Shown here in pieces: positions 2,354-42,236 of a stretch of DNA of 42,236 nucleotides. Below the pieces are notes generated by a model. That model was not told the origin of the DNA and did not search any database. It worked only from the letters and a program-made list of their open reading frames with translations. Both the position numbers and the translations under genes were made by a program. The DNA is from a virus: the UHGV virus genome UHGV-1360403. One strand, written 5' to 3'. Each line of letters begins with the position of its first letter. Within the stretch, counting starts at the first letter, position 1.

Positions 2354-3115
2354 TTACGAGGAAGCGTTAGCTATTTGAGCTTGTGTAAATTCGAAACCAG
2401 AATTTTGTAACCGTTGCACTAGACGAGGAACTGTTTCACGTACATGGTCGTTGAAATTCAGATACAAAATCCCGTTAGCATCAGAAGGCTGTTCTAGGTG
2501 CTGTTTCTGAAGGATTGCTACATTGCTGCGCCCTAAGGACGAAAGAAGCATACCCATCTCGAGTACAACGTTCTGTCTTGCGCGGGGTTGGATTTCTGCT
2601 TCACCGGCGCGCTTTGAGTATCCCATATCATCAGGTGTCAAAAGAACAATCCCGAAACGAGTAGCAGTTTGTCCTTGCCCAATTTCACGTTCAAGCTCTT
2701 CAATAATGGTGAGTCCAGTCCCTCCCGTATTCTGCAAAATGAAATGGTCTGGTAATCCAAGTTTATGAAGGATTAGCTCAAGTTGTTCCTTTGCAGTATG
2801 GTCATGGCCGTGAACAATGAATATCTTTTTGGGAAGCTCAGATGGCTGTTCTACGGCTAGTGGTGTTGCCGTGGGGGGCGTTCCTAAATGGGACATTATT
2901 GCAGTTTCAACATTGGGACGTTCTTGAGGGTTCCCTTGAAACTGAATGGTCCGGGTGGTGTAAAGGTTAACAATTACGCCATTCGTTAAACGATAGCAGT
3001 CATAAGTCTCACGCTGTTCGTGGGAAAAATTGGTGAACCCACACTCCCTCAAAAAGTCAGGAAAAGATTCTCTCGGGTATGGATAGTTGATCGGCATTTC
3101 AGTTAGTTCCTGCAT
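2354..3115 (-). CDS. TIR-like domain protein (253 aa): novel ~100-aa N-terminal domain plus C-terminal TIR-like nucleotide-binding domain
   Basis: KIFIVHGHD...GIVLLTPDDMG...ARQNVVLEMGMLLSSLGRSNVAIL matches the 'predicted nucleotide-binding protein containing TIR-like domain' pattern; own terminator downstream; lower G+C than PolA by eye. Confidence 0.65.
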   Translation of the reverse strand: MQELTEMPINYPYPRESFPDFLRECGFTNFSHEQRETYDCYRLTNGVIVNLYTTRTIQFQGNPQERPNVETAIMSHLGTPPTATPLAVEQPSELPKKIFIVHGHDHTAKEQLELILHKLGLPDHFILQNTGGTGLTIIEELEREIGQGQTATRFGIVLLTPDDMGYSKRAGEAEIQPRARQNVVLEMGMLLSSLGRSNVAILQKQHLEQPSDANGILYLNFNDHVRETVPRLVQRLQNSGFEFTQAQIANASS

Positions 3116-3179
3116 AAGTATTGTTCCTTTAATTTACTCGAATTCAGCATGTCGCCATAGCTCGATAAGGTGAGTTATA

Positions 3180-5243
3180 TCAATCTTTTTTGTAGTGGTA
3201 CGCCTCAAAGCCGCCAGCGTTCAGCGGAATATCGGGTGCCCATTCGGGGTTAGTGGAGAGAAGCGCGGAAAGCGCTTTATCGTTGAAATCTTCTGTGTCT
3301 GGTGCTTCGGTGATCACCTCGTCGTGTACCGTTAGCACAATGCTGTAACCGGCACCCTCGATCAGCGGCATGTTTCTGGCTAGAACGTCGCGGGCGGCCG
3401 CCTGGGTGACGTTCTCCACCAGCTTTCCGCCGTAGGTTTTGAGTCGTTGCCATTTACGCGAATAAGAGTTAACACCCATGTAGGTGATATTCCCTTGTTC
3501 GATAACCGGAGACGGGTAGCATACAGCGCGTCCGGATGGTAGCTGTATGCGCAGCCACGCGCCATCACGTCGGATTTTAAGATAGCCGCAATACAATGTT
3601 TTTTGCGGTGTGGCGATTGCTGTGCGGACAGTGCGCTCCAGCTCGTACCAGAAATCGCAGGTCGCCGGGTGCGCCCTGCGCCACAGGCGCTTGAGCGAGT
3701 CACATGCGATGAATACACGCTCGGACAGGCCAAAGGTCGACTTACGCTTAACCGATTCGTCGTACCAGCTTTTTGCCTCGCGGATAACATCGCGGGGAAT
3801 GTTTGGCAGTGCGGCGTTCGCCAGCTCGTCGAGATCGAGACCGTAAACCAGAGCAAAAGTGATGAAAGCCGATACACCACCTCCATAACCCAGACCGAGT
3901 TCCATGACTTTACCGATCTGACGCATGTGTTTATCAACATCATCTGGTGCAATATCGAAAGCTTTTGCATACGCCAGTTTATATAAGTCCGGACCCGTTC
4001 CAGCGTCATACTCTCTGAATGCATTCAGTTTCCATTCTTCTCCCGCCAGCCATGCCAGCATACGGCCTTCAATGTTTGACAAGTCACTTACCACTAGTTT
4101 TTTGCCTGTTGGCGCGATAATGCAGCCACGTAACGCTGAACTGGTTAGTTCCATGATATTGTCAAACAGCAGGTCTGCACATCCGGCTTTCAGTGCTTCG
4201 ATGCCTTCGTCTATTTGTTCCTGTTTTAGTGAAGGGCGGGGAAGGTTCTGGGGCTGGAATAGCCGTCCGGCCCAACGACCGGTACGTGACGCCCCGCAGA
4301 ACTGTAGCGTACCGCGTAAGCGCCCGTCGTGGCTTACGCCTTTCATCAGTGCCTTGTATTTACTGGTGCTGGTAGTACTGGCTTGCAGGCGGATAGCCAG
4401 CAGTTCTTTCACGGCAGATGATAAATCGGGGTCGGCCATACGACGTTCCAGGGTACTGCGTTGCATGTCTGGTAGCTCCACACCGTAGGATTCAACGATG
4501 TGCTTAATCAACGCGTCCCGTTGTGTGGCTGCCTGCACTTCGCCATCAGTCATTTCCTGTGTACGCTTTGCCAGGCGCTTTTGCTCCTGGTCTACCGCTT
4601 CGATCGCAGCGCGCGCGAGTTGCATGTCCATGCAGACGCCCCGGTCGTTGATCTGCTGATCACGATGCCAGAGCGCCAGCTCTGTCCCCTGATAATTCCA
4701 CTTCGGCAGACGTTTATAGACTTCACGCATTGCTTCGATATCCAGTCCGGCGTAAGCAACAAAGCGCCGCCATTCTTCCGGATGGGTTTTACTGGTGGCC
4801 CGACGCAGTTTGCTGTTTTTCGGACGTGGCTTACAGAACAGCTGGATCAGCGCTTTACCTTCTTTGTCCTTCGCTTTGTCTTGCGGGACGCCTAGTACTT
4901 CGCAGAGTTCCCCCAGAGACCCCGGGAGACCGTGCGCCAGCGCCTGCACCATCGTGTCGCGCCAACGTTCGACTGGCGGTGCCAGTCGCGGCATTGCATA
5001 ACGCAGAACGGTGCGGTCGAAGTGAGAGTTATGGAAATAAAGCAGGGTTTCAGGGTCTGCGATTGCTTCGTATAAGCCGTGTGGAATACCACCACCGGCA
5101 GTGATATCCCACACGTTTACTGGCCCGTCGTTGATAGCCCATGCGAAAAGCATCACTTCAACGCCTTCGGCATACGCATGGGTACCGTTCGTAATAGGGA
5201 TTTCGCAATAGGTTTCCAGGTCGCCCCATAGTATATTGGACAT
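3180..5243 (-). CDS. Family A DNA polymerase (PolA-like, with 3'-5' exonuclease region)
   Basis: 687 aa; N-terminal exonuclease-like region and C-terminal polymerase region (...[14 protein letters not shown]..., ...[11 protein letters not shown]...). Confidence 0.85.
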
Positions 5244-27648: not shown

Positions 27649-29623
27649 AACTATTAAAGATTTCCTCGTCTCGCTTGGCTTCCGTGTGGATGATGCAGGA
27701 GCGAAAAAGTTCGGTTCTGTCCTCGCCGGTACAACTGCAAATGTCATCAAAATGGGGCTGGCTGTTGAAGGGGCTGCGCTGTCCGTGGTGGCCTTCACGG
27801 CTAAGATCGCCTCCGGCCTGGATAATCTTTACTGGGCGTCACAGCGCACCGGCGCGACGGTCCAGGGAATTCAGTCTATTGGCTATGCGGTTTCGCAGGT
27901 TGGCGGCAGTGTGGACGCTGCGCGATCTTCTCTGGAAAGCCTCTCCCGGTTTATTCGTAACAATCCCGGAGCAGAAGGCTTTCTGAATCGCCTGGGCGTA
28001 CAGACCCGTGATGCCAGCGGTAACATGCGTGACATGGCTGCTATCTTTACGGGCGTTGGACAGAAACTCAGCAGCATGCCGTATTACCGGGCTAACCAGT
28101 ATGCGCAGATGCTGGGCATTGACGAAAATACCCTGATGGCTATGCGTCGCGGAGTGGGGCAGTTCAGCGCTCAGTATTCAGAAATGGTGAAAGCGATCGG
28201 ATTTAATGCCGATCAGGCTGCCTTATCGTCAAACCGGTTTATGACCTCGCTGAAATCGCTCGGTGAAATGGCCAGGATGGCGCGGGACAAAATCGGATCG
28301 AATCTTGCGGACGGACTGGCGGGGCAGATTGATAACCTGCGCAAAAAGATAATTGAAAATTTTCCCAAAATTGAAGTCACCATCACAAAGGTCATAAAGG
28401 GGATCCTCTGGCTGGGTGAGATAGTCGGGCGGGTAGCATTTCGGATAGTCGATGGTGTCGGAGATATCATCGAGTGGTGGGGGAAACTGGATGCCGAAAC
28501 GAAAACCCTGATAGAGGTTATCGGCGGTCTGGTTGTCGCCATGCGGATACTTAACTCTACTTTCTGGATGTCACCTATAGGGCTGATTACCGGTCTGATC
28601 GTGGCTCTCGGTCTCTTGTGGGAAGACTACAAAACATGGAAAGAAGGCGGTAACAGTCTTATCGACTGGGAAAAATGGCAACCGGCAATAGATAAAGCGA
28701 AGGATGCGATCACCTGGCTTCGTGATCACCTTCTGGAACTAAAAGATGGTGTTGGCGGCTGGCAAAATGCACTGGAAATCCTTGGTACATTCATCGCGGG
28801 TGTCTGGGTATCCAGGGTTCTGGGGGCTTTCGGGAAAATATCAGGTTTGCCGGTCCCGCCGTGGTTAAAAGGCTGGATGGCTTATGCTGCGTATTTGTAC
28901 TCTGATCGCGAAAATATTGGTGCCAGTGCGAAGTCATCCTGGGATTACACGAAACAAAATATTGGAGATTCATTGCGCTGGCTTGGCATTGATACCGATT
29001 TTGGTCGTAATCCTCATACCGTAAAAGGCGCAAATATTCAGTCAGATATTCCAGGTGCTGAGCCGGAACAATATGCACAGGCTACGAAACGAGGAGAACG
29101 GAATAACAATCCGGGAAACCTTAATTTTGCTGGTCAGGCAGGGGCTTCTCTTGAACGCCCGGGCGGGCGATTTGCCAGATTTGAAACTGCCTTTGATGGA
29201 TTACGGGCTCTTGCTCGTCAGTTAATGCTGTACGCCGGACGGGGAATAAACAGTGTGGAGAAAATTATCTCTACCTGGGCACCTGCGTCTGATAATAACA
29301 ACACAACAGCGTATATCAGGGCTGTATCGCAACGACTGGGAGTGGATCCCCGGGCTGCCCTGAATATGAGCGATCCGCAAACCATGTCAGCATTGATGAG
29401 CAGCATTATCCAGCATGAGAATGGAAGAAATATCTATTCTCGAGAGCTGATTAATAAGGCTGCCGTGGCGGGAATTAGTGGCAAAGTGACAGAGGTTAAC
29501 CAGCAAAATACCTACCACATTTACGGTGGCGGAGATCCGCACGCTGTCGGTAATGAGGTTGCACGTCGGCAACAGTCTGCAAATGCTCAGGTCATGCGAA
29601 GTAATCAGGTGAGGGTGGGTTAG
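27638..29623 (+). CDS. Tail tape measure protein
   Basis: About 660 aa with hydrophobic central segments; ATG at 27638 with SD GAGAGG (the ORF-track start at 27617 is TTG). Confidence 0.8.
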   Translation: MNAETIKDFLVSLGFRVDDAGAKKFGSVLAGTTANVIKMGLAVEGAALSVVAFTAKIASGLDNLYWASQRTGATVQGIQSIGYAVSQVGGSVDAARSSLESLSRFIRNNPGAEGFLNRLGVQTRDASGNMRDMAAIFTGVGQKLSSMPYYRANQYAQMLGIDENTLMAMRRGVGQFSAQYSEMVKAIGFNADQAALSSNRFMTSLKSLGEMARMARDKIGSNLADGLAGQIDNLRKKIIENFPKIEVTITKVIKGILWLGEIVGRVAFRIVDGVGDIIEWWGKLDAETKTLIEVIGGLVVAMRILNSTFWMSPIGLITGLIVALGLLWEDYKTWKEGGNSLIDWEKWQPAIDKAKDAITWLRDHLLELKDGVGGWQNALEILGTFIAGVWVSRVLGAFGKISGLPVPPWLKGWMAYAAYLYSDRENIGASAKSSWDYTKQNIGDSLRWLGIDTDFGRNPHTVKGANIQSDIPGAEPEQYAQATKRGERNNNPGNLNFAGQAGASLERPGGRFARFETAFDGLRALARQLMLYAGRGINSVEKIISTWAPASDNNNTTAYIRAVSQRLGVDPRAALNMSDPQTMSALMSSIIQHENGRNIYSRELINKAAVAGISGKVTEVNQQNTYHIYGGGDPHAVGNEVARRQQSANAQVMRSNQVRVG

Positions 29624-30210
29624 TGGATATTCTCTCTACACTTTTTCATCAGCAGAGCAGAAAAATAGGAATGATTGTTCCCAGTGTTGTTATTTCAGAG
29701 AAGCATACAGATATGCTTGAAATAACAGAGCATCCGGTAGAGGTCGGGGCCGCTGTCGCTGATCATGCCTATAAAAAACCGTCAGAAGTGGTGATGGAGG
29801 TTGGTTTCGCCGGTGGCGGCGCATTGCTGGATTTTGCCAGTAACCTGACGGCTACCAGCCTGCTCGGCCTGAGTCCTCAGCAGACGTATCAGGAGCTACT
29901 GGGTCTGCAGGAAAGCCGTATCCCCTTCGATGTGGTAACCGGTAAACGGCTGTACAGCAACATGTTGATCCGGGCGCTGGAAGTGACGACGGACAAGACA
30001 ACCGAAAACGTCCTGTCCGCCGTCCTCACCCTGAGGGAGGTCATTATCTCCCGGACACAGCAGATTACCGTCGCGGATAAAACCAACATGAAGGAAGGGG
30101 CCAGCACGTCGGCGGTACAGAACAGCGGCAACAAAACCACAAAGCCTCCAGATACTTCACTGCTGAAAAGCATCACGGGTAACGTGGCGTCATTACTGGG
30201 GGGCGGCTAA
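29623..30210 (+). CDS. Baseplate/tail protein, hypothetical
   Basis: 195 aa following the tape measure with overlapping stop/start. Confidence 0.45.
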   Translation: MDILSTLFHQQSRKIGMIVPSVVISEKHTDMLEITEHPVEVGAAVADHAYKKPSEVVMEVGFAGGGALLDFASNLTATSLLGLSPQQTYQELLGLQESRIPFDVVTGKRLYSNMLIRALEVTTDKTTENVLSAVLTLREVIISRTQQITVADKTNMKEGASTSAVQNSGNKTTKPPDTSLLKSITGNVASLLGGG

Positions 30211-30512
30211 TGACAATTCAGGAAATTCCGCTGACAGCGGACAACCAGCAGTTCAGCATCGTCCTGGGTGGTGTCACCTGGCGGATTAGCATCATATGGC
30301 GCGATCTGTACTGGATTATGGACCTGCAGAACGACAGAGGGGAGCCGGTAATCTCCGGTATTCCTCTCGTCACTGGTGCTGACCTGCTGGCGCAGTACGC
30401 CTGTATGGGGCTTGGTTTTAAGCTGGTGGTGGTCTGTGATGACAACACACAGGATTACCCCACAAAAACTGACCTGGGCGGTCGCAGCCATTTACTGGTA
30501 TCAACGGAGTAA
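30210..30512 (+). CDS. Baseplate protein, hypothetical
   Basis: 100 aa, coupled to neighbours. Confidence 0.4.
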   Translation: MTIQEIPLTADNQQFSIVLGGVTWRISIIWRDLYWIMDLQNDRGEPVISGIPLVTGADLLAQYACMGLGFKLVVVCDDNTQDYPTKTDLGGRSHLLVSTE

Positions 30513-30514
30513 GC

Positions 30515-31579
30515 ATGTCACAGAACTGGATGAGACATTTCGAGCTGCAGCTTGTGGACGGGAACGGTCAGGGAATTGAGCTAAGTGATTTCAAAGTCAC
30601 CTTTACGATCGACTGGTTCAACATCAGCAGCGCGTCCCGGGTAGGGACTATCAAAATTTATAACCTCTCGGCAGATACTGTGAACCGAATTACCGGGCAG
30701 GAGTTTTCGAAAGTGCGTCTGATTGCCGGTTACGACGGTATCGCGCCGGAGGTGTCAGCAAGCGACGTAGGGACCGTGCGGGAAGTTGACGCGGCGGACG
30801 TGGGCCAGAGAGATGGCCGCAACTACGGACTGATTTTCAGCGGTGAAATTCGCTACTCGGTCACAGGAAAAGACAGTCCGGTTGATACCTACGTCCTGAT
30901 TCAGGCAGCAGATACTGATCTGGCTTTTGCTACCAGTATAACCTCACAGACGCTGGCTGCCGGTTACACGGTCGCTGATGTGAACCGTGCGCTGATGAAA
31001 GACTTCGAAGCCAAAGGCGCGACCGAAGGCCTGACGCCTGAAATGCCTGCTACTGTATTCCCCCGGGGGCGGGTACTCTTTGGCATGACGCGGCATCTAA
31101 TGGATAACGTAGCCGGACAATGTGGCGCAACATGGCAATTCGTGGACGGTCAGCGCCAGATGGTGGTGAATAACGAATATGTTCACGAAGCGATTGTGCT
31201 CAACAGCGCTACCGGGCTTATTGGAATGCCGCAGCAGACTATCGGTAACGGCGTAAACGTCCGCGCGCTTATTAATCCGAACATCCGGGTTAACGGGCTC
31301 ATTCAGCTGGATCAGGCTTCCGTCTATCGTACCGCGTTGTCGAACAACGATATTGCGATGGCTGGTGGTCAGATCACCGACCAGAACACGGACGGAAATA
31401 TCACGCTCAGCGGCACCACATCGCAGCCTGCCAGCATCGCAACGGATGGCGTTTATATTGTGCGCGGGATTATGTACACTGGCGACACAAGGGGCCAGGC
31501 GTGGTACATGGATATGATGTGTGAAGCGCGTGGCGCGGCGGATCTTGTTTCCTCATCAGCGAGGGAAAGAGGGCTTTAA
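30515..31579 (+). CDS. Baseplate hub-like protein
   Basis: 354 aa at the position of the hub gene in Mu/P2-type baseplate modules. Confidence 0.45.
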   Translation: MSQNWMRHFELQLVDGNGQGIELSDFKVTFTIDWFNISSASRVGTIKIYNLSADTVNRITGQEFSKVRLIAGYDGIAPEVSASDVGTVREVDAADVGQRDGRNYGLIFSGEIRYSVTGKDSPVDTYVLIQAADTDLAFATSITSQTLAAGYTVADVNRALMKDFEAKGATEGLTPEMPATVFPRGRVLFGMTRHLMDNVAGQCGATWQFVDGQRQMVVNNEYVHEAIVLNSATGLIGMPQQTIGNGVNVRALINPNIRVNGLIQLDQASVYRTALSNNDIAMAGGQITDQNTDGNITLSGTTSQPASIATDGVYIVRGIMYTGDTRGQAWYMDMMCEARGAADLVSSSARERGL

Positions 31580-31914
31580 TGAAACGGTTATGTTTGGCGT
31601 TAGTTATGATGGTTACTGCTCCGGCGATGGCTGCAATTCAGTGCGGCAACTACACGATGACCGGTGACGGAATGACTGTTATTAACGGTGAAACTGTCAC
31701 ATCACAGAAGATAAAATTTCTGGGAAAAGATGGTGACTATTCAAACATGAAAATGGACATGGGCCTGATGCCTTCCCGTGATGGTAACAATTACGGCTTT
31801 GAGTTTGTGAAACGTAACGGAAAAGCTTTCCTGAACGTCCAGCTGCTGCAGAACAGCATGGACGCGCCGAAAATCATTGGATCTTTCCCGTGTAAAAAAG
31901 TGAGCAGCAAGTGA
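31579..31914 (+). CDS. Small secreted protein (cargo), cleavable signal peptide
   Basis: MKRLCLALVMMVTAPAMA-AIQCG...: signal peptide with AMA cleavage motif, two Cys in the mature part, no lipobox. Confidence 0.6.
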   Translation: MKRLCLALVMMVTAPAMAAIQCGNYTMTGDGMTVINGETVTSQKIKFLGKDGDYSNMKMDMGLMPSRDGNNYGFEFVKRNGKAFLNVQLLQNSMDAPKIIGSFPCKKVSSK

Positions 31915-32423
31915 CAGTTGATGATGATCCTTTGAATTCATTTCAAGACCCTGACTTTCAGGAACTTCTCGGCGGAATTGATATTACTCTTGTTATAAGG
32001 TTTTTTAATTATTTTTCGCGTTTCGAATATGCGTTAAAAAGAATTAATTTCAAAAAAACTGATCGTAGAAATTATCTAATCGGTGCTGACTGGAGCCGCT
32101 ACGCTACTGATGATACGCGGCCTTTATATCCTACTGGAAATAGAAATGTCGATAGGGCAGTTGAGTATCTATGTCAGCAACCTGTGAAGCAGCAGAGGCA
32201 TGATTTTTCGTGGGAGGATAAACCTCCAATCGAACCTCATTCTCTTGCTGAAGCATTAAAGCAGATCCCGTATATAAGAAATAATCTCTTTCACGGCGGG
32301 AAGTATTTACGTCCCGCCCCCGTTCGTGATGAAAAGTTATTGAAATACTCTATTTATTTGATGCAGTTGTGTTTGATAACTGATAATCAGCTTTCTGAAT
32401 ACTTTAATACTATCCACCGATAG
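31911..32423 (+). CDS. AT-rich cargo protein with HEPN-like R-x4-H motif (170 aa)
   Basis: Motif IRNNLFHGG (R-x4-H) near the C-terminus; GTG start overlaps the upstream stop (GTGA); AT-rich. Confidence 0.5.
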   Translation: MTVDDDPLNSFQDPDFQELLGGIDITLVIRFFNYFSRFEYALKRINFKKTDRRNYLIGADWSRYATDDTRPLYPTGNRNVDRAVEYLCQQPVKQQRHDFSWEDKPPIEPHSLAEALKQIPYIRNNLFHGGKYLRPAPVRDEKLLKYSIYLMQLCLITDNQLSEYFNTIHR

Positions 32424-32443
32424 TCATTCTTCATGAGATAAAA

Positions 32444-32466
32444 CCTGCCACCCGGCGGGTTTTTTG
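32444..32466 (+). terminator. Intrinsic terminator after the cargo pair
   Basis: CCTGCC-ACCC-GGCGGG (one G-U pair) followed by TTTTTT. Confidence 0.55.
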
Positions 32467-32483
32467 CTTTTTGGAGCCTACCA

Positions 32484-33236
32484 ATGGCAGTAACTGACCA
32501 GACCCGCAGTGGCGATCTTGCCGAAACATTTAAATCTGAACGGGAAACAACAAAGAACCAGATCCGTGTCGCCTTGCCTGGCATTATTCAGTCATTCGAT
32601 CCTGACGCGGTGACGGCGGTTGTGCAGCCAGCTATCCGGTCAGTTGAAAAGGATAACGACGGTAACCGCATTACCAAAAATTACCCATTGCTGGTGGATG
32701 TGCCAGTGGTATTCCCGCGCGGCGGAGGCTGTACGTTGACTTTTCCGGTAAAAGCTGGGGATGAGTGTCTTGTCGTTTTTGCCGATCGTTGTATTGATTT
32801 CTGGTGGCAGAGCGGCGGGATACAGGAGACGGTTGATGACAGAATGCATGATTTATCGGATGCGTTTTGTATTGTCGGTCCCCAGTCGCAGGCTAGGAAG
32901 ATTAGCGGTATTAATACCAGTGCCACACAGTTGCGTAGTGACGACGGCAGCACCTATTTTGAGCTTAATCCTGATACCAGGAAAATTAAAATTGTCGCTC
33001 CGGGGGGGCTTGATGTGGTTGCCCCCCTGGCTGATTTTTCTGAGAAAGTAACCATTCATGGCCTGTTAACCTGGATGGGGGGCATGGTGGGGTCTGTGGT
33101 TTCTGGTGTGGCTTCAAAAATCACTGGTGCTGTTGAGTTTTTGGGGAGCGTGAAGGCTAACGGCAAGCCAATCGATGATACGCACACTCATGGTGGTGTT
33201 CAGCGCGGTGGAAGCAGTACCGACGGGGTAAACTGA
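32484..33236 (+). CDS. Baseplate assembly protein V (central spike)
   Basis: 250 aa, Gly-rich C-terminal region (GGVQRGGSSTDGV) as in gpV/Mu gp45-type spikes. Confidence 0.65.
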   Translation: MAVTDQTRSGDLAETFKSERETTKNQIRVALPGIIQSFDPDAVTAVVQPAIRSVEKDNDGNRITKNYPLLVDVPVVFPRGGGCTLTFPVKAGDECLVVFADRCIDFWWQSGGIQETVDDRMHDLSDAFCIVGPQSQARKISGINTSATQLRSDDGSTYFELNPDTRKIKIVAPGGLDVVAPLADFSEKVTIHGLLTWMGGMVGSVVSGVASKITGAVEFLGSVKANGKPIDDTHTHGGVQRGGSSTDGVN

Positions 33237-33589
33237 TGCGATACAGACGTGAAGACGCCGATGGCGATTACACCTTTGGCAGCGGTGATGACACCTGGCT
33301 GATTAACTCACCGGAGGCCGTGGCGCAGGCGGTAAAAACGCGATTCGAATTGTGGTATGGGCAATGGTTTCTCGACACCACCGAGGGGACTCCGTGGATC
33401 CAGTCCGTACTCGGTAAGCAGAAGCCGGAAACCTACAACCTGGCGATCCGTAAGCGCATCCTCGAAACGCAGGGCGTTAAATCAATCCTCTCTTTCAATA
33501 CGACGCTGGATACCACGACCCGACGTGTCATGTTTTCCGCTGAAATCGACACTCTTTATGGAATAACGACTGTTACATCGGAGGCGTAA
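33236..33589 (+). CDS. Baseplate protein (gpW/gp25-like position)
   Basis: 117 aa between V-like and J-like genes. Confidence 0.45.
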   Translation: MRYRREDADGDYTFGSGDDTWLINSPEAVAQAVKTRFELWYGQWFLDTTEGTPWIQSVLGKQKPETYNLAIRKRILETQGVKSILSFNTTLDTTTRRVMFSAEIDTLYGITTVTSEA

Positions 33590-34788
33590 TGGCTCTGAAC
33601 CTTGATTCTCTCGGTTTATCTGCAAAGGTAACCGCGGAGGGGATCAGTGCGCCTGATTATCAGACGATACTCAGCACCCTGATTAGCTATTTTCAGCAGA
33701 TTTATGGCAGTGATGCCTACCTCGAACCGGACAGCAAAGACGGCCAGATGGTGGCTCTGATGGCGCTGGCGATTCATGATGCCAATAATACTGCGATAAC
33801 TGTCTACAACTGTTTTTCACCGGCAACCGGCTATGGGGCTGCACTGACCTGTAACGTGAAAATAAATGGTATTTCACGTAAAGGCGCGACGAACTCTACG
33901 GTTGATTTGCTTCTTACAGGAACTGCCGGAACAACCATCATTAATGGCAGCGTGAAAGACAGTAATAATGTGATATGGCGTTTGCCTGCTTCAGTGGTGG
34001 TAGGCGTGGATGGTACAGTGATGGTGACCGCAACATGTTCCGTCAGTGGTGCAGTGGCGGCGCTGGCTGGAACTATCACTGAAATTAATACGCCAACCCG
34101 TGGCTGGGTTTCGGTAACCAATCCTGCTGCAGCCACTGTGGGCACTCCGGCAGAAACTGACGCTGAGTTACGTATCCGCCAGTCGCAAAGTGTTGCGTTG
34201 CCATCAATAACCCCATTTGAAGCACTGGATGGTGCTGTTTCTAATGTTACCGGTGTAACCCGCCACAAACTCTATGAAAACGATACTGGTTCGGAGGACG
34301 GTAACGGGTTACCGCCACACTCTGTTGCTGTAATTGTGGATGGCGGTGATGTAACGGATATTGCTCAGGCTATCAGAGGGAATAAAGGCCAGGGGACAGC
34401 CACTCACGGTACAACATCCGTTACGGTTCCGGATAAATACGGCAATCCCCATGTAATCAAATTCTCGCGTTCCAGTGATGTGCCTGTTTATGCCCTGATT
34501 AAATTAAAAGTTTTTACGGGTTATACCTCACAGATAGGGCAGCAGATCCAGCAGGCTATTTCCGACTATATCAATAGTCTGATGATTGGTGATTCGGTCC
34601 TTTTAAGTCGCATTTACTCACCGGCGAATCTTGGCGTGGTGAGTGGCGGGAATGCACGCTATTACGATATTCAGGAACTGACGATTGGGAAATCCCCGGG
34701 GGCTTTGTCGTCATCAAACATTGATATCAGATACAACGAATCTGCGTCCTGTACCCCGAAAAATATCGTTATAACGGTGGAGTCATGA
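33589..34788 (+). CDS. Baseplate J-like protein
   Basis: 399 aa at the conserved position and size for baseplate J. Confidence 0.7.
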   Translation: MALNLDSLGLSAKVTAEGISAPDYQTILSTLISYFQQIYGSDAYLEPDSKDGQMVALMALAIHDANNTAITVYNCFSPATGYGAALTCNVKINGISRKGATNSTVDLLLTGTAGTTIINGSVKDSNNVIWRLPASVVVGVDGTVMVTATCSVSGAVAALAGTITEINTPTRGWVSVTNPAAATVGTPAETDAELRIRQSQSVALPSITPFEALDGAVSNVTGVTRHKLYENDTGSEDGNGLPPHSVAVIVDGGDVTDIAQAIRGNKGQGTATHGTTSVTVPDKYGNPHVIKFSRSSDVPVYALIKLKVFTGYTSQIGQQIQQAISDYINSLMIGDSVLLSRIYSPANLGVVSGGNARYYDIQELTIGKSPGALSSSNIDIRYNESASCTPKNIVITVES

Positions 34789-35465
34789 GCAAATACACCG
34801 AACTAATCACGAACTACCACGCCACCAAACCTAAATTTCTTGCGCATGTTGATCTGATGACCCGGCCACTTATTGATGTTGCGGCTGCCACCAGAGGGCT
34901 GATTAGTGCATTTGATATTGACTCTGCGGTTGGTGTGCAACTTGACATCCTTGGATTGTGGATCGGACGTAGCCGTGTTGTCAGCCAGCCTATCTCAGGT
35001 GTCTATTTCAGCTGGGATACCGACGGGCTTGGATATGATCAGGGGGTATGGCAGGGACCATACGATCCTGATTCAGGATACATGTATCTCAGCGATGAAA
35101 CTTATCGTGTCATTCTTAAAGCGAAGATTGCGATTAATAACTGGGACGGACGGAATGATTCGCTTCCGGCAATTCTTGACGCGGCAACAGCAGGATCCGG
35201 GCTGCGAATGCAGATAGTCGATAACCAGGACATGACGATATCGGTCTGGGTCTTTCCTGATACTGATATTTCAGATGTATCGCGTGAGTTAATTGCGGCA
35301 ATTAAACAGGGGTATCTCACAGTAAAAGCCGCCGGGGTATGGGCGGGTGGCATTGAAACACCTTCGGTGGAAACCCCATCGGAAGGCTCAAAATTTTTTG
35401 GTTTTGATATGGATAACGAATTCATCAGTGGTTTTGATGTAGGAGCATGGGGAGTATTACTCTGA
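34785..35465 (+). CDS. Baseplate/tail protein (gpI-like position)
   Basis: 226 aa, coupled to the J-like gene and preceding the tail fibre. Confidence 0.5.
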
Positions 35466-36259
35466 TGGCGAAAAATGACTTTAAAGCGTTTGCAACGGAT
35501 CGAAATGCCAATGTTATATCGCAGGAGGAATGGGAAGCGTTGCCCGCGCTTTTATCTGGATTTACAGCAGGGAAAGCCTCCAGTGCGCAAGTCAATAAGG
35601 TTATTCGGCAGGCCAGCTTTATTGCTGCAGCTCTGGCCCAGTTTGTAAGTGATAAAACGCAACGGGATGTGCTTGATAATGGTGATCTGCCCGGTTTTGT
35701 TGAATTGCTGGGATCGGGGTTTGCTGTTGAATACCTGAGCCGCAAGAATCCGTTTGGCGATATCAAATCGGACGGCACGGTGAAAACAGCTCTCGAAAAC
35801 CTTGGTTTGGGAGAAGGTGCCCCAGCTATTGGCGTTCCGTTCTTCTGGCCGTCCGCTGCAATGCCAAATTCTGTCATCGACAGCTGGTCCGGTATGGTGT
35901 TTTTGAAGTTTAACGGGGCGAAATTTTCTGCCTCTGATTACCCTGTGCTGGCGAAAGTGTTTCCTTCGCTGGTATTACCTGAAGCCCGCGGTGATTTCAT
36001 TCGTATCTGGGATGACGGGCGAGGTGCAGACGGTGGTCGCGAATTATTAAGCTGGCAGGCAGCTACAAACTTTTCTCAGTTTGCCGGGAATATAGGCGAT
36101 GGTGCGGGCCACACAATTAATTTTCATGATGGTATCGCCGGAAATCAGCCAGGATTTTCACGATTTAATTTCACCAGTAACTCTGTGGGTGATGGTGTGA
36201 ATTTTGTTGCCGTCAGACCGCGAAATATTGCATTTAACTTTCTGGTGAGGGCTAAATGA
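35447..36259 (+). CDS. Tail fibre protein (constant N-terminal part to codon 123, then variable C-terminal part Sv in the current orientation)
   Basis: 270 aa; tail-collar-like segment [41 protein letters not shown]; inverted-repeat crossover site inside at 35802-35816. Confidence 0.7.
35802..35816. repeat. Left inverted repeat of the invertible tail-fibre segment
   Basis: TTGGTTTGGGAGAAG; perfect reverse complement at 37611-37625; encodes (N)LGLGE in the fibre. Confidence 0.7.
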
Positions 36260-36852
36260 TGACCCCAATTTTTGATGAAAATGGACTGGCTACAGTGCCG
36301 GGCGATATGCGTTGTTTTTATTATGATGCTGAAACATCTGAGTATACGGGCTGGTCTGATGAATATATTAATACTGGCGTAAGTATGCCCGCCTGTTCCA
36401 CTGGAATTAACCCTGGCGAAAACATTCCGGGAAAAGTGGCTGTATTTACAGGTAAGGGATGGAGCCATGAAGAGGACCATCGCAATGAGACTGTTTACTC
36501 AATCGAAAATGGCGCAGCTGTTACAGTGGATTATATCGGTGCCATCAAAGATGGTTATGTCACGCTTTCACCGTTAACGCCATACGATAAATGGGATGGT
36601 GAGAAATGGGTGACGGATACCGAGGCACAGCATAGCGCCGCAGTAGACGCGTCAGAAGCACAGCGCCAGTCACTGATTGATGCAGCAATGGCTTCCATTA
36701 GTCTGATTCAGCTGAAATTACAAGCCGGGCGGAAACTGACGCAGGCAGAAACAACCCGGCTTAACGCTGTGCTGGATTACATTGACGCGGTGACGGCAAC
36801 AGATACCAGCACCGCGCCGGATGTCATCTGGCCTGAACTGCCGGAGGCGTAG
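36256..36852 (+). CDS. Tail fibre assembly protein (Tfa/U-like)
   Basis: C-terminal ...[26 protein letters not shown] is a typical Tfa signature. Confidence 0.75.
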
Positions 36853-37264
36853 GCCATTCAATATCTGGCGCACCGGAAGTATCGACCAGTTCCAGTGCGT
36901 CCAGATAATCCAGCCACAAATTATATTGCACCAGTTCCTCACCTTTCAGGCGACCAATCGCCGCTTTACCAGGCCATTGCTTACTGTTTATGTATTCGTT
37001 GACCTGATTAATCAATTGCTGCTTTTTCAGTTCGGCTGCGGCAATTTGTTCCTCATGAGTTGGCGGTGGAATATCAATCCATGCAGGCATTCCGTCGATG
37101 ACACCTCTGTATTTTCCTTCTGGTGCTTCCTTCATAAATTCGGCAGCAACAGTGTCGTCAATTTCGATTCCATCATCGGGCCATTCGCCGGATTCCTGAT
37201 AAGCGATTTTAAGCTCCACAGGGAAAAACGCATTTTTATCGGCACTGAAAATATATTTCTGCAT
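36824..37264 (-). CDS. Alternative tail fibre assembly protein (U'-like), inverted orientation
   Basis: C-terminal ...[29 protein letters not shown]; convergent with and overlapping the plus-strand Tfa. Confidence 0.7.
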   Translation of the reverse strand: MQKYIFSADKNAFFPVELKIAYQESGEWPDDGIEIDDTVAAEFMKEAPEGKYRGVIDGMPAWIDIPPPTHEEQIAAAELKKQQLINQVNEYINSKQWPGKAAIGRLKGEELVQYNLWLDYLDALELVDTSGAPDIEWPTPPAVQAR

Positions 37265-37266
37265 TT

Positions 37267-37625
37267 CTACCGTCCTATCGAAATATAACTGAATCTGTAT
37301 TGCTGTGAGATATCACTGGTTGCCACACGCCACGCTGAATTACTGATATGTTCAAAATTTACAGACAAAACCTGCGGGGCAGGATTCGACGGGTCTGACT
37401 GAACGGCATCAGACATAACACTGACTGAAATCATCGGCTGATTAGGGAATGGTATAGGGAAGTGTCCACTGATAAAGCGGGTCGTGTTTCCTGAAAAAGT
37501 GCCAAACTGAACAATATATCCACCTGGTAGCCTGAACCATCCCGAACCAGAAGCGAATGCTCCCATATCCGGTATCTGATTATCTCCTGTGCCCACATTC
37601 CGTTTTGCCGCTTCTCCCAAACCAA
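37267..37625 (-). CDS. Alternative tail-fibre C-terminal cassette (Sv'-like), expressed only after inversion
   Basis: Minus-strand ORF reads ...INVGLGEAAKRNVGTGDNQ... through the right inverted repeat, sharing GLGE with the fibre at the crossover; the upstream ATG (37665) is probably fortuitous. Confidence 0.55.
37611..37625. repeat. Right inverted repeat of the invertible tail-fibre segment
   Basis: CTTCTCCCAAACCAA, reverse complement of 35802-35816; flanks agree at 5 of 7 further positions. Confidence 0.7.
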
Positions 37626-37691
37626 CGTTTATGAAAATGCAGAAATAACGAGCAAATGGCATCATTCCTGCTTTTGTCAGAGGGATCCACT

Positions 37692-38006
37692 ATGCTTATT
37701 GGCTATGTACGTGTGTCAACAAATGACCAGAACACAGATCTACAACGTAATGCGCTGAACTGTGCAGGATGCGAGCTGTTTTTTGAAGACAAGATAAGCG
37801 GTACAAAGTCCGAAAGGCCGGGACTGAAAAAACTGCTCAGGACATTATCGGCAGGTGACACTCTGGTTGTCTGGAAGCTGGATCGGCTGGGGCGCAGTGT
37901 GCGGCATCTTGTCGTGCTGGTGGAGGAGTTGTGCGAACAAGGTGTTAATTTTAGTAGTTATGTTATTACAGGTGGGGGATTTCTCCCCCTTATGCAGATT
38001 TTCTAG
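37692..38006 (+). pseudogene. Serine DNA invertase (Gin/Hin/Pin/Cin family), 3'-truncated
   Basis: MLIGYVRVSTNDQNTDLQRNAL...DTLVVWKLDRLGRS...GVNF matches the catalytic domain of Gin-type invertases; similarity stops near 37952 and the ORF ends after an unrelated 17-aa tail; no C-terminal HTH. Confidence 0.75.
37974..37989. repeat. Short GC hairpin at the junction between the invertase remnant and the low-GC island
   Basis: GGGGGA-TTTC-TCCCCC. Confidence 0.4.
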
Positions 38007-38010
38007 TTAA

Positions 38011-38856
38011 CTATTGGCGAAGTGGCCATATTTTTCTGTTTTTTAAAAAACTATCTTCAACTATATAACTGCAACAATGTTCACTAAGGCCATAAAAACT
38101 AATTATTCCATATTTATGAGAAGCTATATCAGACAGTTCTGCTAATACTGTGGCAAGCCAACGAGCGATGCTAAGAGAATAGAATCTTCCCCACTTTTGA
38201 ACAATGGTATTTTGTCCAGTACGGATGGAGGCTGATATAAGGTCTTGCATAATGTTGGTACTTTCATTCATATACATGACCGTTGTATACGGTGAAAGAG
38301 TGGCATTGATAAACCTAGCATTTTCTTCAACACGTCTTTGTTCAACTGTATAATAATAATGTTTTTCAAGGATACTCTCGGCTACTTCTCCCCACCATTT
38401 ATTAATAGGTTCATTATTGGTTAAATTGGGGCTGCTTAATGAGGAGAAATTTGCGTAACGTCCCCGTCGGGCATCAGCAAAGGAATCTAAACATTCAAGT
38501 ATTTTGTAGGTAATTTTATGTGTAGGACGTGAATATCTCAGAGATAGTTGCATTTTTTTAGAAATACTATCAACCTCGTTGGTTAATTCAATGAGCTTAT
38601 GTCCAAATTTTCTTACAATATTCTCATCAGGCATTTTCCCTTTGTGTTCAATGGCATAGTGTGCAACAAGTATTAGTTTAGCAAGTCTCTCAAAACCTAC
38701 AGAAAGCCCAAAAAATGCTGTGTAATATTCACCTATTTTGTCTGCATAATTGGCTTTACCTATGGCTGTTGCCCCAGAACCAATGAGCTGTGTAACTAAA
38801 GATGCTTCTCGGCCCAGAGCGTGCCATGCTGGAATATCCCAGGGATTTTTATTCAC
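38011..38856 (-). CDS. AT-rich cargo protein (281 aa), function unknown
   Basis: Long AT-rich ORF in an AT-rich block that interrupts the invertase; R-x5-H (RYSRPTH) noted but not diagnostic. Confidence 0.55.
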   Translation of the reverse strand: MNKNPWDIPAWHALGREASLVTQLIGSGATAIGKANYADKIGEYYTAFFGLSVGFERLAKLILVAHYAIEHKGKMPDENIVRKFGHKLIELTNEVDSISKKMQLSLRYSRPTHKITYKILECLDSFADARRGRYANFSSLSSPNLTNNEPINKWWGEVAESILEKHYYYTVEQRRVEENARFINATLSPYTTVMYMNESTNIMQDLISASIRTGQNTIVQKWGRFYSLSIARWLATVLAELSDIASHKYGIISFYGLSEHCCSYIVEDSFLKNRKIWPLRQ

Positions 38857-38984
38857 TTTATTATTTTCCTTTGCTCATAAATTTAAATTGTTTGAGTATC
38901 TCATAAAATATAAGGAGATGGTTAAGGTTGTTGATCGCATATAATAGCTATTGAAAGTCAAGAACTCGGTTTTATGTTCTACCA

Positions 38985-39023
38985 CTAATTAATATATTGT
39001 GAGTTTGACAATATATTAATTAG
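38985..39023. repeat. Perfect 16-bp inverted repeat with 7-bp spacer
   Basis: CTAATTAATATATTGT-gagtttg-ACAATATATTAATTAG. Confidence 0.6.
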
Positions 39024-39157
39024 TATGATCAAACCAGCCATCAACTGATTCCTTGTATCTTTCAGAGTCTCCAGAACAAAAGCCTTAACGAATTCCTTAT
39101 TTGTGAGTGCCTTACCAAAAGCCCATTGTTGCAGGGAACGAGTATAAAACTCGCCAG

Positions 39158-39424
39158 CTACTGGAGCAGGCTACCTGATTGTCGATCGATTCCTGCGTCC
39201 ATATAGTCGATGGTCTTCTGGAGCTCTTCGATTAGGGCAATAGCTTTTGCTCGAGAAATGCATATTAGTTGATCCGGAAATTCTTGTAAGGGCCAGTTTG
39301 GTATACAGGCCATGTTATCAGTGAAGGATGCAGACAAGTAAACTTCATTGGTAACTAGGGAATAGCTTACCTCAAAATTGGTGAGTTCCGGCAAACTGCT
39401 AACGTTTGATTCTTTTCTGCGCAT
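39158..39424 (-). CDS. Hypothetical protein (88 aa) in the AT-rich island
   Basis: ORF only; no recognisable motif. Confidence 0.35.
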   Translation of the reverse strand: MRRKESNVSSLPELTNFEVSYSLVTNEVYLSASFTDNMACIPNWPLQEFPDQLICISRAKAIALIEELQKTIDYMDAGIDRQSGSLLQ

Positions 39425-39568
39425 AATATTATCCAGGACTGTAATTATGTACAGTTAATGGTCTTCAATTTCGAAGAGGGAGTCAAGGGGGAGTCTCAAA
39501 TGAACCTTTATAGAAAGGGGAGCTCTTTGTGTTGCTGAACGTATGCAAAATTTTTTTGCACCATAAAT

Positions 39569-39592
39569 TCAATAACACATTCAATAACACAT
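39569..39592. repeat. Tandem 12-bp direct repeat in an AT-rich non-coding region (candidate attP arm site)
   Basis: TCAATAACACAT x2; adjacent GCAAAATTTTTTTGC near-palindrome at 39545-39559. Confidence 0.45.
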
Positions 39593-39894
39593 TACTGCAT
39601 CACCATGAAAATAAATGTATTTTTATTTAATTTCACACATATCACAATTAATACAGCGTTTAGTAATTAGTAAAGACATTTCAATGAATTACCGTTAAAT
39701 CATTTTAAAAATCAGTAAGTTGTATCGAGTTTGTATGCTTTACTGTCATTAACTTACTGTATGTTGATCCAGTGTATTTAACCTTGATAAACTCAGTCCA
39801 GTAACACAAAGCCGCAACACATTGCATTTTGTCCCGTAGAAAAGACTTGTATGTGTGTGCTTGTTTTCTGCGCCTACGCAGATAAGGATTGAGA

Positions 39895-41292
39895 ATGCCG
39901 CGCACTGTAACACATAATCCGGATAGCCCCAATAATGACGATGTTTTAGCCGCATCTGAAAAATGGGACGCCTGTAAACCCCCCTATACCAGCGCACACA
40001 TGAAAATCTGTGTTGCTGCCGCCAAAATCATCCTCGCTGCTTCCGGCGTGGCTCGCCGTTCCAAATACGAAAAAGAGAACTATCTCCGTATCGATTTCAG
40101 CAAAGCCGGTAAGGTTACATTTTACGCCGAGTTTCCAAAAAAGATGGGCCTCAAAGGTAAAAAGCTCGGCGAGTGGCCGGAGCTCGCTATCCAGCTGGCG
40201 CGCGAAAAAGCGCTAGGTATGGCTGACGGTGGCCTGCGGGCAGAGTCCGTACATGCAGCGCTGGAAATGTACCGGGATGACCTCAAAGCCAAAGTCGCCC
40301 GGCAGAAGCTGAGCCCGGACAGTTTCACAACCTACGGGGTGCGTATCGACCGGATTAAAGCAACGTTCGGCGAGCGCGAGGTGTTCAGCGACGTAACATA
40401 CAATCGGCTGGTGGAAGTGCTGGACGAGTGGATCGCTACTCGCTCGAACAATAACGCCCTGGAGTTGTTTGCCGAGCTCCGTCGGTTCTGGAAGTTCTGC
40501 GCACCTACTCTTTGCAACGGCCGCAATGTTGCCGCCAGTCTGCCAGATGATTATGTTTCCTCCCGCGTACAGAAACCTACCCCCACACGGCTTTTTACCG
40601 ATATTGAATCAATCGCCCGACTCTGGCTCAATGTTGCTGCCTGCACCTCTGTACACCAGAAGAATGCTGTTCGCTTCATGATCATCACTGGTGTTCGTCC
40701 GATTAATGTCCATAACCTGCGCTGGGACTACGTTCACGAGGAGGCTGGTGAAATTGTTTATCCGGAAGGGGTTATCGGCATGCGAGGGGCTATGAAAACA
40801 CAAAAGGCTTTCCGCCTGCCGATAACCCCTGAGATCCGGCGGATTATCGACGAGCAGAAAGCCTGGCGTGATTCAGTTCCTGAGTGCAACAGGGATTATG
40901 TATTTTTGCAGCCACGTGATCCAATGCAGCCATTTTCAAAACGATCACTGGATAAGCTGGTGAAAACATACAGCCCGGACGGGGCTGTAAAAGGAATAAA
41001 ACATGATGGGACTGTTAAAGGGAAAGACGGTGCATTTAATACGATGTGCCGTAAATTCCTTAAGAGCAATGTTATTGCCTTGATGAAGGAAAGAGGCTAT
41101 TCCCGCTCAGACCGAAGGGAAATCAGCCTCCTTTGCCTTCACCACTCCAGCAAGTCAGATGACCCGATGGCAGAACATTACGACTTTTCTGATGAGATTT
41201 TACAGGAAGAGATTGCGTTGAAGCGCGAAGCTTTCGAGGCTCACGAGCGGAGCATACTTGCGCAGGTGGCATTGCTACGGCGGCGAGGTTAA
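39895..41292 (+). CDS. int: Tyrosine integrase (P4/CP4-like family)
   Basis: Catalytic-domain pattern ...IITGVRP... (box I Arg), ...MKTQKAFRLP..., ...LLCLHHSSKSDDPMAEHY (His and catalytic Tyr); ATG at 39895 with AAGGA 7 nt upstream. Confidence 0.8.
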   Translation: MPRTVTHNPDSPNNDDVLAASEKWDACKPPYTSAHMKICVAAAKIILAASGVARRSKYEKENYLRIDFSKAGKVTFYAEFPKKMGLKGKKLGEWPELAIQLAREKALGMADGGLRAESVHAALEMYRDDLKAKVARQKLSPDSFTTYGVRIDRIKATFGEREVFSDVTYNRLVEVLDEWIATRSNNNALELFAELRRFWKFCAPTLCNGRNVAASLPDDYVSSRVQKPTPTRLFTDIESIARLWLNVAACTSVHQKNAVRFMIITGVRPINVHNLRWDYVHEEAGEIVYPEGVIGMRGAMKTQKAFRLPITPEIRRIIDEQKAWRDSVPECNRDYVFLQPRDPMQPFSKRSLDKLVKTYSPDGAVKGIKHDGTVKGKDGAFNTMCRKFLKSNVIALMKERGYSRSDRREISLLCLHHSSKSDDPMAEHYDFSDEILQEEIALKREAFEAHERSILAQVALLRRRG

Positions 41293-41489
41293 TACTGGCT
41301 GCGACATTTTTGAATAAAAGCGTCGATATTTCGGCGCTCATAACGAACTACTTTTGCACTGAAACGAATTGGTGCCAGGATAGCCCGATGACGATGCTTA
41401 ATATTCCACTCACATAGCGTTTTCTGTGTAATACCTAACTTTTGGCATACTTCATCCGGGGTGAGTAAATCGTCGGGTTTCTCGCTCAT
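41289..41489 (-). CDS. AlpA/excisionase-like small HTH DNA-binding protein
   Basis: 66 aa; LLTPDEVCQKLGITQKTLCEW HTH; start ATG overlaps the helicase stop (ATGA), stop overlaps the int stop. Confidence 0.6.
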   Translation of the reverse strand: MSEKPDDLLTPDEVCQKLGITQKTLCEWNIKHRHRAILAPIRFSAKVVRYERRNIDAFIQKCRSQY

Positions 41490-42236
41490 GCTATACCTCT
41501 CTTTTTCATGGCATCGAGCAGGATGTCCTGCACTGTTCGTTTTGAGTTGCGCCGCTCCATCACCATTTCATCCATAGTGTCGGCAGCAATAATGTGGTGA
41601 ATAAATACCGGACGATTGTGTCCGGCCTGTATCTGCCTGGTGGGGCCGATACGTTCAATAATTTGCTGATATTGCTCCAGGTCCCACCAGTGTGAGAAAA
41701 ATACCAGTATATTTCCGCCGTCCTGCATGTTCAGGCCGTGGCCCGCGCTGGCTGGGTGTGCAAAGAGAACAGGAATCTTTCCGGAATTCCAGTCGCGCAG
41801 TGTCTGTGGATCCTGGTCGAGGTGACGACCGCGAGGGAATGCTTTAAGCAAGCGTTCAAGATCGTGTTTCCAGTGATAAGCAACCAGCACAGGTGCGCCA
41901 GCTGCTTCGGTCAGTATGCTGTCCAGCGCCTGTAGTTTGGTGTCATGCAGTTCTGACCAACTTCCGGTGTCATCTGTGTATACTGCGCCGCTGGCGATTT
42001 GCAGACACTTCAGTGTCTTTGCCGCGGCGTTCGGTGCTTCGATGCCTTCGCCATTCAGCTCGAGGAACATTTCCTTTTCCATTTCACGATACTGCTGACG
42101 GGCCTTCGGTGGCATATCCACGCGGATTACGTTATGGATGGGGTCTTTGATATCGAACCAGTCGGCCGCATCCAGCGAGAGGGTTACATCGGCTAACGCT
42201 CGCTGTATTTCACCCTGTGAGTGAGCAAAAGGCTCC
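41486..42236 (-). CDS. SNF2-family helicase, C-terminal part (5' portion is 1..644 across the junction)
   Basis: Helicase C-domain motifs (...VLFAHPASAGHGLNMQDGGNILVFFSHWWDLEQYQQ...); reading frame open to the window end and continuous with 1..644. Confidence 0.85.
   Translation of the reverse strand, partial: EPFAHSQGEIQRALADVTLSLDAADWFDIKDPIHNVIRVDMPPKARQQYREMEKEMFLELNGEGIEAPNAAAKTLKCLQIASGAVYTDDTGSWSELHDTKLQALDSILTEAAGAPVLVAYHWKHDLERLLKAFPRGRHLDQDPQTLRDWNSGKIPVLFAHPASAGHGLNMQDGGNILVFFSHWWDLEQYQQIIERIGPTRQIQAGHNRPVFIHHIIAADTMDEMVMERRNSKRTVQDILLDAMKKRGIA

Follow-up and report, generated by a model that had tools for sequence, protein, structure and literature searches.

A Pin-type invertible tail-fibre cassette with a truncated invertase, probably inverted in trans, in a temperate myovirus of Escherichia coli

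The window analysed here is the whole of virus genome UHGV-1360403, a stretch of 42,236 nucleotides (nt). It contains a tail-fibre gene whose 3′ part lies within an invertible DNA segment of the Din family, followed directly by a truncated gene for a Pin-type serine invertase. Inversion of fibre genes by systems of this family is long established, from Mu G, P1 C, and e14 P onward. To this well-known kind of system the present case adds a carrier not described before, a complete temperate E. coli phage which is neither Mu nor e14.

Organization of the fibre cassette

The constant 5′ part of the fibre gene (Sc) lies outside the invertible segment, while the segment itself holds two opposed sets of genes, each consisting of a fibre C-terminus and a tail-fibre assembly (Tfa) chaperone, and both fibre ends are in frame with Sc (Table 1). 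This is the arrangement of a host-range cassette. The plus strand carries the set that occupies the expressed position, namely a StfE-like/tail-collar end (Sv) and a TfaE-like chaperone; relative to the K-12 reference, it is the StfE/TfaE-like side that is expressed here. The minus strand carries a silent TfaP-like chaperone and a silent gp53-like end (Sv′).

Two ATG codons could initiate the fibre, at 35447 and 35465. The latter is the likely start, as it overlaps the upstream gene in the form TGATG and is the RefSeq start in identical genomes; the 264-residue fibre which begins there is found on 658 contigs (contig counts here and below derive from exact-protein matches in a collection of 15 billion proteins). 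Residues 1-120 of this protein match PHROG tail-fibre N-terminal families, and residues 104-264 match PHROG tail collar fibre families. The constant part resembles e14 StfP in its last ~30 residues only, and the gp53-like end is unrelated to StfP. In the flipped genomes described below Sv′ is annotated as the end of a complete fibre of 231 residues. Database annotation of the silent fibre end differs with the orientation of the segment: in one it is a separate small protein, a complete "gp53-like domain-containing protein," and in the other a pseudogene "missing N-terminus."

The convergent tfa genes overlap at their 3′-ends by 29 nt (36824-36852), the same overlap as between tfaP and tfaE in e14. 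A further inverted repeat, 36771-36788/36897-36914, is due to the shared Tfa C-terminal motif APD[IV].WP..P. Beyond the right border of the segment lies a fixed stub, the counterpart of the 5′-end of stfE in e14, which supplies an ATG-initiated open reading frame (ORF) to whichever fibre end is silent. The stub reads MMPFARYFCIFINVGLGE, where e14 stfE starts MPFACYFFIFINVGLGE.

Table 1. Features of the invertible tail-fibre cassette and its right flank (window coordinates).
Feature	Position	Strand	Details
Left 26-bp crossover site	35790-35815		CTCTCGAAAACC-TT-GGTTTGGGAGAA; core TT 35802-35803; identical to e14 P-segment left site
Constant 5′ tail-fibre part (Sc)	35465-35803	+	Outside invertible segment; from ORF list and RefSeq start
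Variable fibre C-terminus in expressed position (Sv), StfE-like/tail-collar	35804-36259	+	42% identity to e14 stfE (blastp)
TfaE-like tail-fibre assembly chaperone for Sv	36256-36852	+	Caudo_TAP, E 4.7e-26; 63.5% identity to e14 TfaE
Silent TfaP-like chaperone for Sv′	36824-37264	-	Caudo_TAP, E 9.3e-34; 55.6% identity to e14 TfaP
Silent gp53-like fibre C-terminus (Sv′)	37267-37623	-	Pfam Gp53-like_C, E 4.5e-9
Right 26-bp crossover site	37612-37637		TTCTCCCAAACC-AA-CGTTTATGAAAA; core AA 37624-37625; identical to e14 P-segment right site
Fixed stub	37624-37665	-	MMPFARYFCIFINV; outside segment; part of ORF 37267-37665; counterpart of e14 stfE 5′-end
Truncated Pin-type serine invertase	37692-38006	+	Codons 1-87 PinE-like, then 17 unrelated codons and stop
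Retained 5′ invertase coding DNA, putative enhancer region	37700-37950		Position from homology only
AT-rich replacement DNA	37953-39142		36% GC (phage 49%); removed pin 3′ half
ORF281 (281 residues)	38011-38856	-	In replacement DNA; no Pfam, PADLOC, or PHROG match

Crossover sites

A repeat search of the window revealed inverted arms of 20 nt at 35797-35816 and 37611-37630, which differ by a single mismatch (95% complementary) and are spaced 1794 nt apart. They contain the perfect 15-mer TTGGTTTGGGAGAAG at 35802-35816, with its reverse complement at 37611-37625; chance alone would give about 0.012 perfect 15-bp inverted repeats in 5 kb. Each arm makes up the inner half of a larger dyad, 26 bp long and of 12-2-12 layout, the 15-mer being composed of the core, the inner half-site, and one extra base. 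The two dyads are inverted and imperfectly palindromic with matching central dinucleotides, as is characteristic of Din-family sites. With up to three mismatches allowed, the 42-kb window contains the site motif AAACCNNGGTTTGGGAGAA at these two places only, where shuffled sequence would give 0.12 occurrences. A multi-site shufflon of the Min/p15B type was rejected on the grounds that the phage has only these two sites. The sites of e14 (K-12) and Mu were pulled out of their genomes with the same pattern, and both e14 sites proved to be letter-identical to those of the window.

A preliminary description of the locus, made from the letters alone, had reported the perfect 15-bp arms at precisely these positions, and the sequence search recovers them there. 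Their location is right; the real recombination sites are 26 bp long with crossover at the central dinucleotide. It had also listed a fibre end and Tfa on the plus strand and a second Tfa and fibre C-terminus on the minus strand, in agreement with the ORF list and the Pfam matches, and the minus-strand end does read ...INVGLGEAAKR... in frame across the right repeat. The constant N-terminus that it described exists as well, although its length is rather 117 residues from the probable start at 35465 than 123 from 35447.

Both orientations occur in nature

In-silico inversion of 35804-37623 yields the same product as inversion of 35817-37610. Translation of this product shows the open alternative frame that the same description had anticipated, with no stop right after the crossover: the inverted fibre (...ENLGLGEAAKRNVG...YISIGR and stop) comprises 237 residues from 35447 or 231 from 35465, and a Tfa gene of 146 codons starts 2 nt past its stop. 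Strand exchange would take place at the central TT/AA dinucleotides of both sites, and this would keep the reading frame; the shared half-site encodes LGLGE.

The flipped left junction, constructed in silico, was searched for in 5,426 complete E. coli genomes and is contiguous in 13 of these, three of them at 100% identity; the unflipped form is present at 100% identity in 18 complete genomes, a ratio of 18:3. The three flipped genomes (L003, L004, and L005; origins New Zealand, Australia, and the Czech Republic) agree with the in-silico inverted window at every base of 29404-39649 (10.2 kb); the prophage, its integration site, and the invertase pseudogene are unchanged in them. An exact site-to-site inversion is the sole difference between the flipped and unflipped prophages. 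Among the contigs, the exact flipped fibre is found on 56 (unflipped, 658), and the exact truncated Pin on 862. The alternative orientation is therefore present in related genomes, as had been supposed, and its breakpoints lie exactly at the sites, which is what is seen in the Din family. Relatives with an intact pinE also occur in the flipped state.

The adjoining invertase gene is truncated

The gene to the right of the segment begins MLIGYVRVSTNDQ and retains the PinE/Gin N-terminus with the catalytic Ser9 (MLIGYVRVS). Similarity to pinE is lost at 37952-37958, near codon 87 of the 184, and of the 145 positions in the Pfam Resolvase profile only 2-98 are matched; the gene lacks both the oligomerisation helix and the helix-turn-helix (HTH) DNA-binding domain. 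RefSeq labels the gene a pseudogene, "missing C-terminus," whereas GenBank phage records call it plainly "DNA invertase" (e.g., ON470588). The possibility of a split gene, with the missing half elsewhere in the phage, was rejected: tblastn with PinE, Gin, and a P2-type invertase found neither a second invertase nor a pin 3′ half in the window (E > 0.2). Recombination of the Hin/Gin type requires 26-bp sites, an enhancer, and the DNA-binding domain, both for binding to the sites and for contact with Fis (PMC3798978). Since the truncated invertase is without this domain and the phage has no other recombinase of the kind, it is unable to invert the segment with its own product. The cassette is a Din target and not a self-sufficient Din system, which would have an adjacent invertase with both a catalytic and a C-terminal HTH domain.

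In Hin/Gin-type systems a Fis-bound enhancer of ~65 bp is located inside the invertase gene, ~100 bp from one of the sites (PMC3798978). In the window the ~340 bp past the right site are retained and align collinearly, at about 94% with e14 pinE and at 73% with Mu gin, and for this reason the Fis-dependent enhancer is probably intact within the invertase stub. A simple scan for Fis cores returned conserved candidates at +168 and about +205, with no clear pair at the canonical spacing.

Alignment with a close relative whose pinE is intact (L002) breaks off at 37952 and picks up again at 39143, which indicates that ~1.2 kb of AT-rich DNA has taken the place of the pin 3′ half and of a gene next to it. 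The ORF281 product, encoded within this DNA, has no match in Pfam, PADLOC, or PHROG. At the same position e14 carries the restriction gene mcrA, and the intact relative a different ORF of 215 residues; the position has the look of a slot for exchangeable cargo. A perfect 17-bp palindrome, ACTAATTAATATATTGT...ACAATATATTAATTAGT (38984-39000/39008-39024, 7-nt spacer), occupies the intergenic region between ORF281 and an ORF of 88 residues and could be an operator or a terminator.

The contigs with the exact 104-residue Pin include Shigella sonnei, and the 90%-identity cluster of this protein includes forms of 131 residues named "DNA-invertase lambdoid prophage e14" (364 and 112 contigs). With 104- and 131-residue forms on many contigs, truncated pin genes appear to be common in enterobacterial prophages.

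Evidence for inversion in trans

We regard the cassette as a two-state site-specific inversion switch of the Din family, of the e14 "P segment/Pin" type, that is likely flipped in trans, and assign to this reading a probability of about 0.85. The late operon continues from the fixed fibre segment into the 1.82-kb segment between the inverted 26-bp sites. In the orientation of the window the fixed part is joined to the StfE-like/tail-collar end, followed by the TfaE-like chaperone, and in the inverted orientation to the gp53-like end, followed by the TfaP-like chaperone; the switch in this way sets the receptor-binding end carried by the tail fibre. With the arrival of the AT-rich cargo the phage's own invertase lost everything past about codon 87, and self-flipping with it. 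Inversion would continue, more rarely, through Pin-type invertases of co-resident prophages, acting on the intact sites and probably using the enhancer that the truncated gene has kept.

Flipped and unflipped genomes share one truncation, so that the inversion was probably the later event and was catalysed in trans. The simplest history, one truncation followed by one or more later inversions, calls for a recombinase supplied from elsewhere. Such activity has precedent: PinE, PinQ, and PinR, the products of three prophages, all invert the e14 segment at its TTGGTTTGGGAGAAGG/CCTTCTCCCAAACCAA repeats (Kirigo et al. 2025, NAR, PMC12529663), and these published repeats are the same element as the sites in the window. 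Inversion of e14 has moreover been seen by sequencing in clonal cultures (Goldberg et al. 2014, PMC4272514). Catalysis in trans, taken by itself, is likely.

A second line of evidence comes from a composite probe, made up of a 1.6-kb prophage-specific anchor and the pinE 3′ half that is absent from this locus, which was compared with the chromosomes of the 21 carriers. A single probe place was found in 17 of the 18 unflipped carriers (by megablast in all 17; by sensitive blastn among those listed), whereas two of the three flipped carriers, 22AR0747 and MSB1_6C, have a second chromosomal place by both megablast and sensitive blastn. In these flipped chromosomes (NZ_CP195459.1 and NZ_LR890714.1) the second place is known only as an additional count of places; we infer that it represents another invertase locus. 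The association of the flipped state with a second place has a one-sided Fisher p = 0.04, a value which overstates independence given that the isolates are related. This co-occurrence is only suggestive of action in trans.

Several observations weigh against this interpretation. The flipped genome 1296KP has no second chromosomal locus, and the unflipped 097H6 has one. The second locus, known as a place count only, may match either part of the probe and may or may not be an intact invertase; the comparison covers chromosomes only, and the carriers are close relatives, as is reflected in the caveat on the Fisher test. Homologous exchange between flipped and unflipped relatives could join a truncated invertase to a flipped segment. 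Retention of the enhancer rests on homology, the Fis-motif scan being indecisive, and the host-range consequence of fibre switching is one that we infer. The two fibre ends do belong to unrelated families (tail-collar/StfE-like and Gp53-like_C), which is consistent with different receptors.

Alternative explanations

The alternative that survives best, although we consider it unlikely, is that the switch has been dead since the invertase was truncated and that no inversion takes place today. Both orientations would then predate the truncation, or else homologous recombination would have moved the module of truncated invertase and cargo beside a flipped segment. Such a history accommodates an invertase that is certainly dead in cis, the skew of orientations (18:3 in complete genomes and 658:56 among contigs), and the flipped genome without a helper locus, and cassette modules clearly do move between phages. 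It has to reckon, however, with flipped and unflipped prophages that are identical at ~10,200 flanking and internal bases save for the exact inversion; on grounds of parsimony, one truncation with inversion after it is much to be preferred to either two acquisitions or an exchange that leaves no scar. The intact sites, identical to those which three Pin enzymes invert in trans (PMC12529663), and the extra probe-matching locus in two of the three flipped genomes likewise speak for a switch that still operates.

Somewhat less probable again is that the main role of the cassette is defence of the lysogen, the minus-strand ORF that starts in the stub (37267-37665, 132 residues, or its counterpart of 165 residues once flipped) masking surface receptors in the manner proposed for the e14 fusion StfE2. 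The resemblance of the stub to the start of stfE, which gives the silent fibre end an ATG-initiated ORF, the calling of the 132-residue ORF on 591 contigs, and the anti-T2 activity reported for the e14 analogue (Kirigo et al. 2025, PMC12529663) are in its favour. The gp53-like end is, however, unrelated to the e14 StfP end which those authors studied, and scans for promoters and terminators at the right border remained at chance level, and no promoter-like signal exceeded this level in the DNA ahead of the stub ORF. A role in the virion is the simplest reading, as the fibre and Tfa genes belong to the late tail operon of a complete phage.

RecA-dependent homologous recombination between the 20-bp inverted repeats, with no site-specific invertase involved, is very improbable: exchange anywhere in the identical 15-bp stretch would give the same product and no functional invertase is present in cis, but repeats of 15-20 bp are too short for efficient RecA-mediated exchange in E. 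coli, these are genuine invertase sites of 26 bp with the same letters as those of e14, and an extra locus that matches the composite probe, part of which is the pinE 3′ half, tends to accompany the flipped state. The e14 segment is, furthermore, reported to be locked in pinE and pinE pinQ mutants (Kirigo et al. 2025, PMC12529663).

The carrier phage

The window is E. coli DNA and represents a whole phage genome closed on itself at attP. From 1340024 onward, NZ_AP022003.1 runs collinear with positions 1-39669 of the window; the 2.6 kb directly left of 1340024 correspond to 39632-42236 and contain the tyrosine integrase (39889-41292) and the end of yfhL. The overlap of the two match ranges places the attP core near 39632-39669, and six mismatches to the chromosomal right junction at 39650-39665 mark its edge. 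The prophage is integrated between yfhL and yfhH.

Besides the tyrosine integrase, the phage encodes a Q antiterminator, a lambda-type holin, terminase, head, contractile-tail, and baseplate proteins, and its structural genes are of the SEN34-like myovirus type. It has been deposited as vB_EcoM-606R2, 611R5, and 683R1, and among classified phages one paper places Salmonella phage SEN34 closest to 683R1. The carrier is, then, a complete temperate myovirus of E. coli, of the vB_EcoM-606R2 type. The GenBank "phage" records also contain flanking host genes (yfhH and others).

In the early region, a TIR-domain protein (2354-3115, minus strand) has a match to PDC-S35, a candidate defence system in PADLOC (E 1e-108), and its neighbour, an ORF of 305 residues (707-1624, minus strand), has a weak match to TIR effectors. 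These genes, beside those for a DNA polymerase and an SNF2 helicase, likely form a phage-borne anti-phage module.

Implications

The main value of this analysis lies in the annotation of a widespread E. coli prophage (ST38-type genomes, vB_EcoM-606R2), and it is relevant to host-range prediction or engineering with the fibre of this phage. An orphaned switch still seen in both states is, in addition, a natural experiment on prophage cross-talk. It offers a testable case of one element's recombinase setting the host range of another phage, and complements the 2025 report on PinQ and PinR (PMC12529663).

That the tail-fibre switch of a complete, presumably viable temperate phage is worked only by the invertases of other prophages is put forward tentatively, at slightly under even odds. 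If inversion in trans does operate in this way, the orientation would be frozen in helper-free lysogens and unlocked by the invertases of e14, Rac, Qin, or P2-like phages, and the host range of the phage would vary with the set of prophages resident in whichever host it occupies. The skews of 18:3 and 658:56, together with the co-occurrence of flipping and a second locus, would then be the population signature.

Comparison with known systems

The closest known system is the P segment of e14 in E. coli K-12 (stfP-tfaP-tfaE-stfE-pinE). Its segment of 1797 bp (PMC12529663) compares with the 1794 nt between the repeat arms here; gene order is the same, and both have a stub ORF at the right border. 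Identity amounts to 63.5% for TfaE, 56% for TfaP, and 42% for StfE, and to about 94% at the nucleotide level for the 5′ part of pin. There are clear differences. While e14 is a defective element residing at icd, the cassette described here belongs to a complete 42-kb myovirus of inducible type at yfhL/yfhH; its fixed fibre N-terminus is unrelated apart from the last ~30 residues, its second end is gp53-like and not StfP-like, its invertase is cut at about codon 87, and it has AT-rich cargo with ORF281 where e14 has mcrA. It shares with e14 the sites, a Pin-type invertase, and TfaE/TfaP-type chaperones, and resides outside the e14 element. On sequence grounds the cassette belongs to the e14 P family, as a mosaic member.

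With the G segment and Gin of Mu the cassette shares its logic: a constant 5′ fibre part, opposed sets of fibre end and chaperone, 12-2-12 sites, and an invertase gene directly to the right. Gin is intact in Mu, and is 65% identical across the truncated product of 104 residues. The gix site of Mu, TTATCCAAAACC-TC-GGTTTACAGGAA, differs in sequence from the sites of the window while having the same architecture. The G segment is larger (~3 kb), and Mu is transposable, whereas the present phage is non-transposable and has a tyrosine integrase. S and S′ show no detectable similarity to the fibre ends, and U′ is weakly similar to one Tfa. The differences in site sequences, S/S′ genes, and backbone set the cassette apart from Mu G. 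The C segment and Cin of P1 share the architecture; the direct sequence comparison covered Mu.

The preliminary description had assigned the locus to the Mu gin/G, P1 cin/C type, carried by a non-Mu phage. As to architecture this is sound, but the identical sites make e14 P segment/Pin the precise family; the tyrosine integrase, Q antiterminator, lambda-type holin, and SEN34-like structural genes all bear out a phage other than Mu. The description was right to see an inversion cassette, and had left both the adjoining invertase gene and its truncation unmentioned.

Phage 500465-2, a P2-like member of the Peduoviridae, has the same four genes and is about 94% identical over a stretch, 2501-4990 in that phage, which runs from the left crossover site into the invertase gene. 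There the module is joined to a P2-type fibre of 501 residues in a different backbone, and the invertase is complete (195 residues). The ~94% module is also present in Klebsiella and Salmonella phages, again with a complete invertase and on unrelated fibre N-termini. Grafting of the same module onto unrelated N-termini indicates that it moves between phage backbones at the crossover site.

The action of one prophage's invertase on a segment located elsewhere is known from PinQ and PinR on e14 and from Fin on the Salmonella H segment (PMC12529663). In these cases the target keeps a working invertase of its own (PinE and Hin, respectively), whereas here the cis enzyme is gone, and under the proposed mechanism action in trans would therefore be obligatory.

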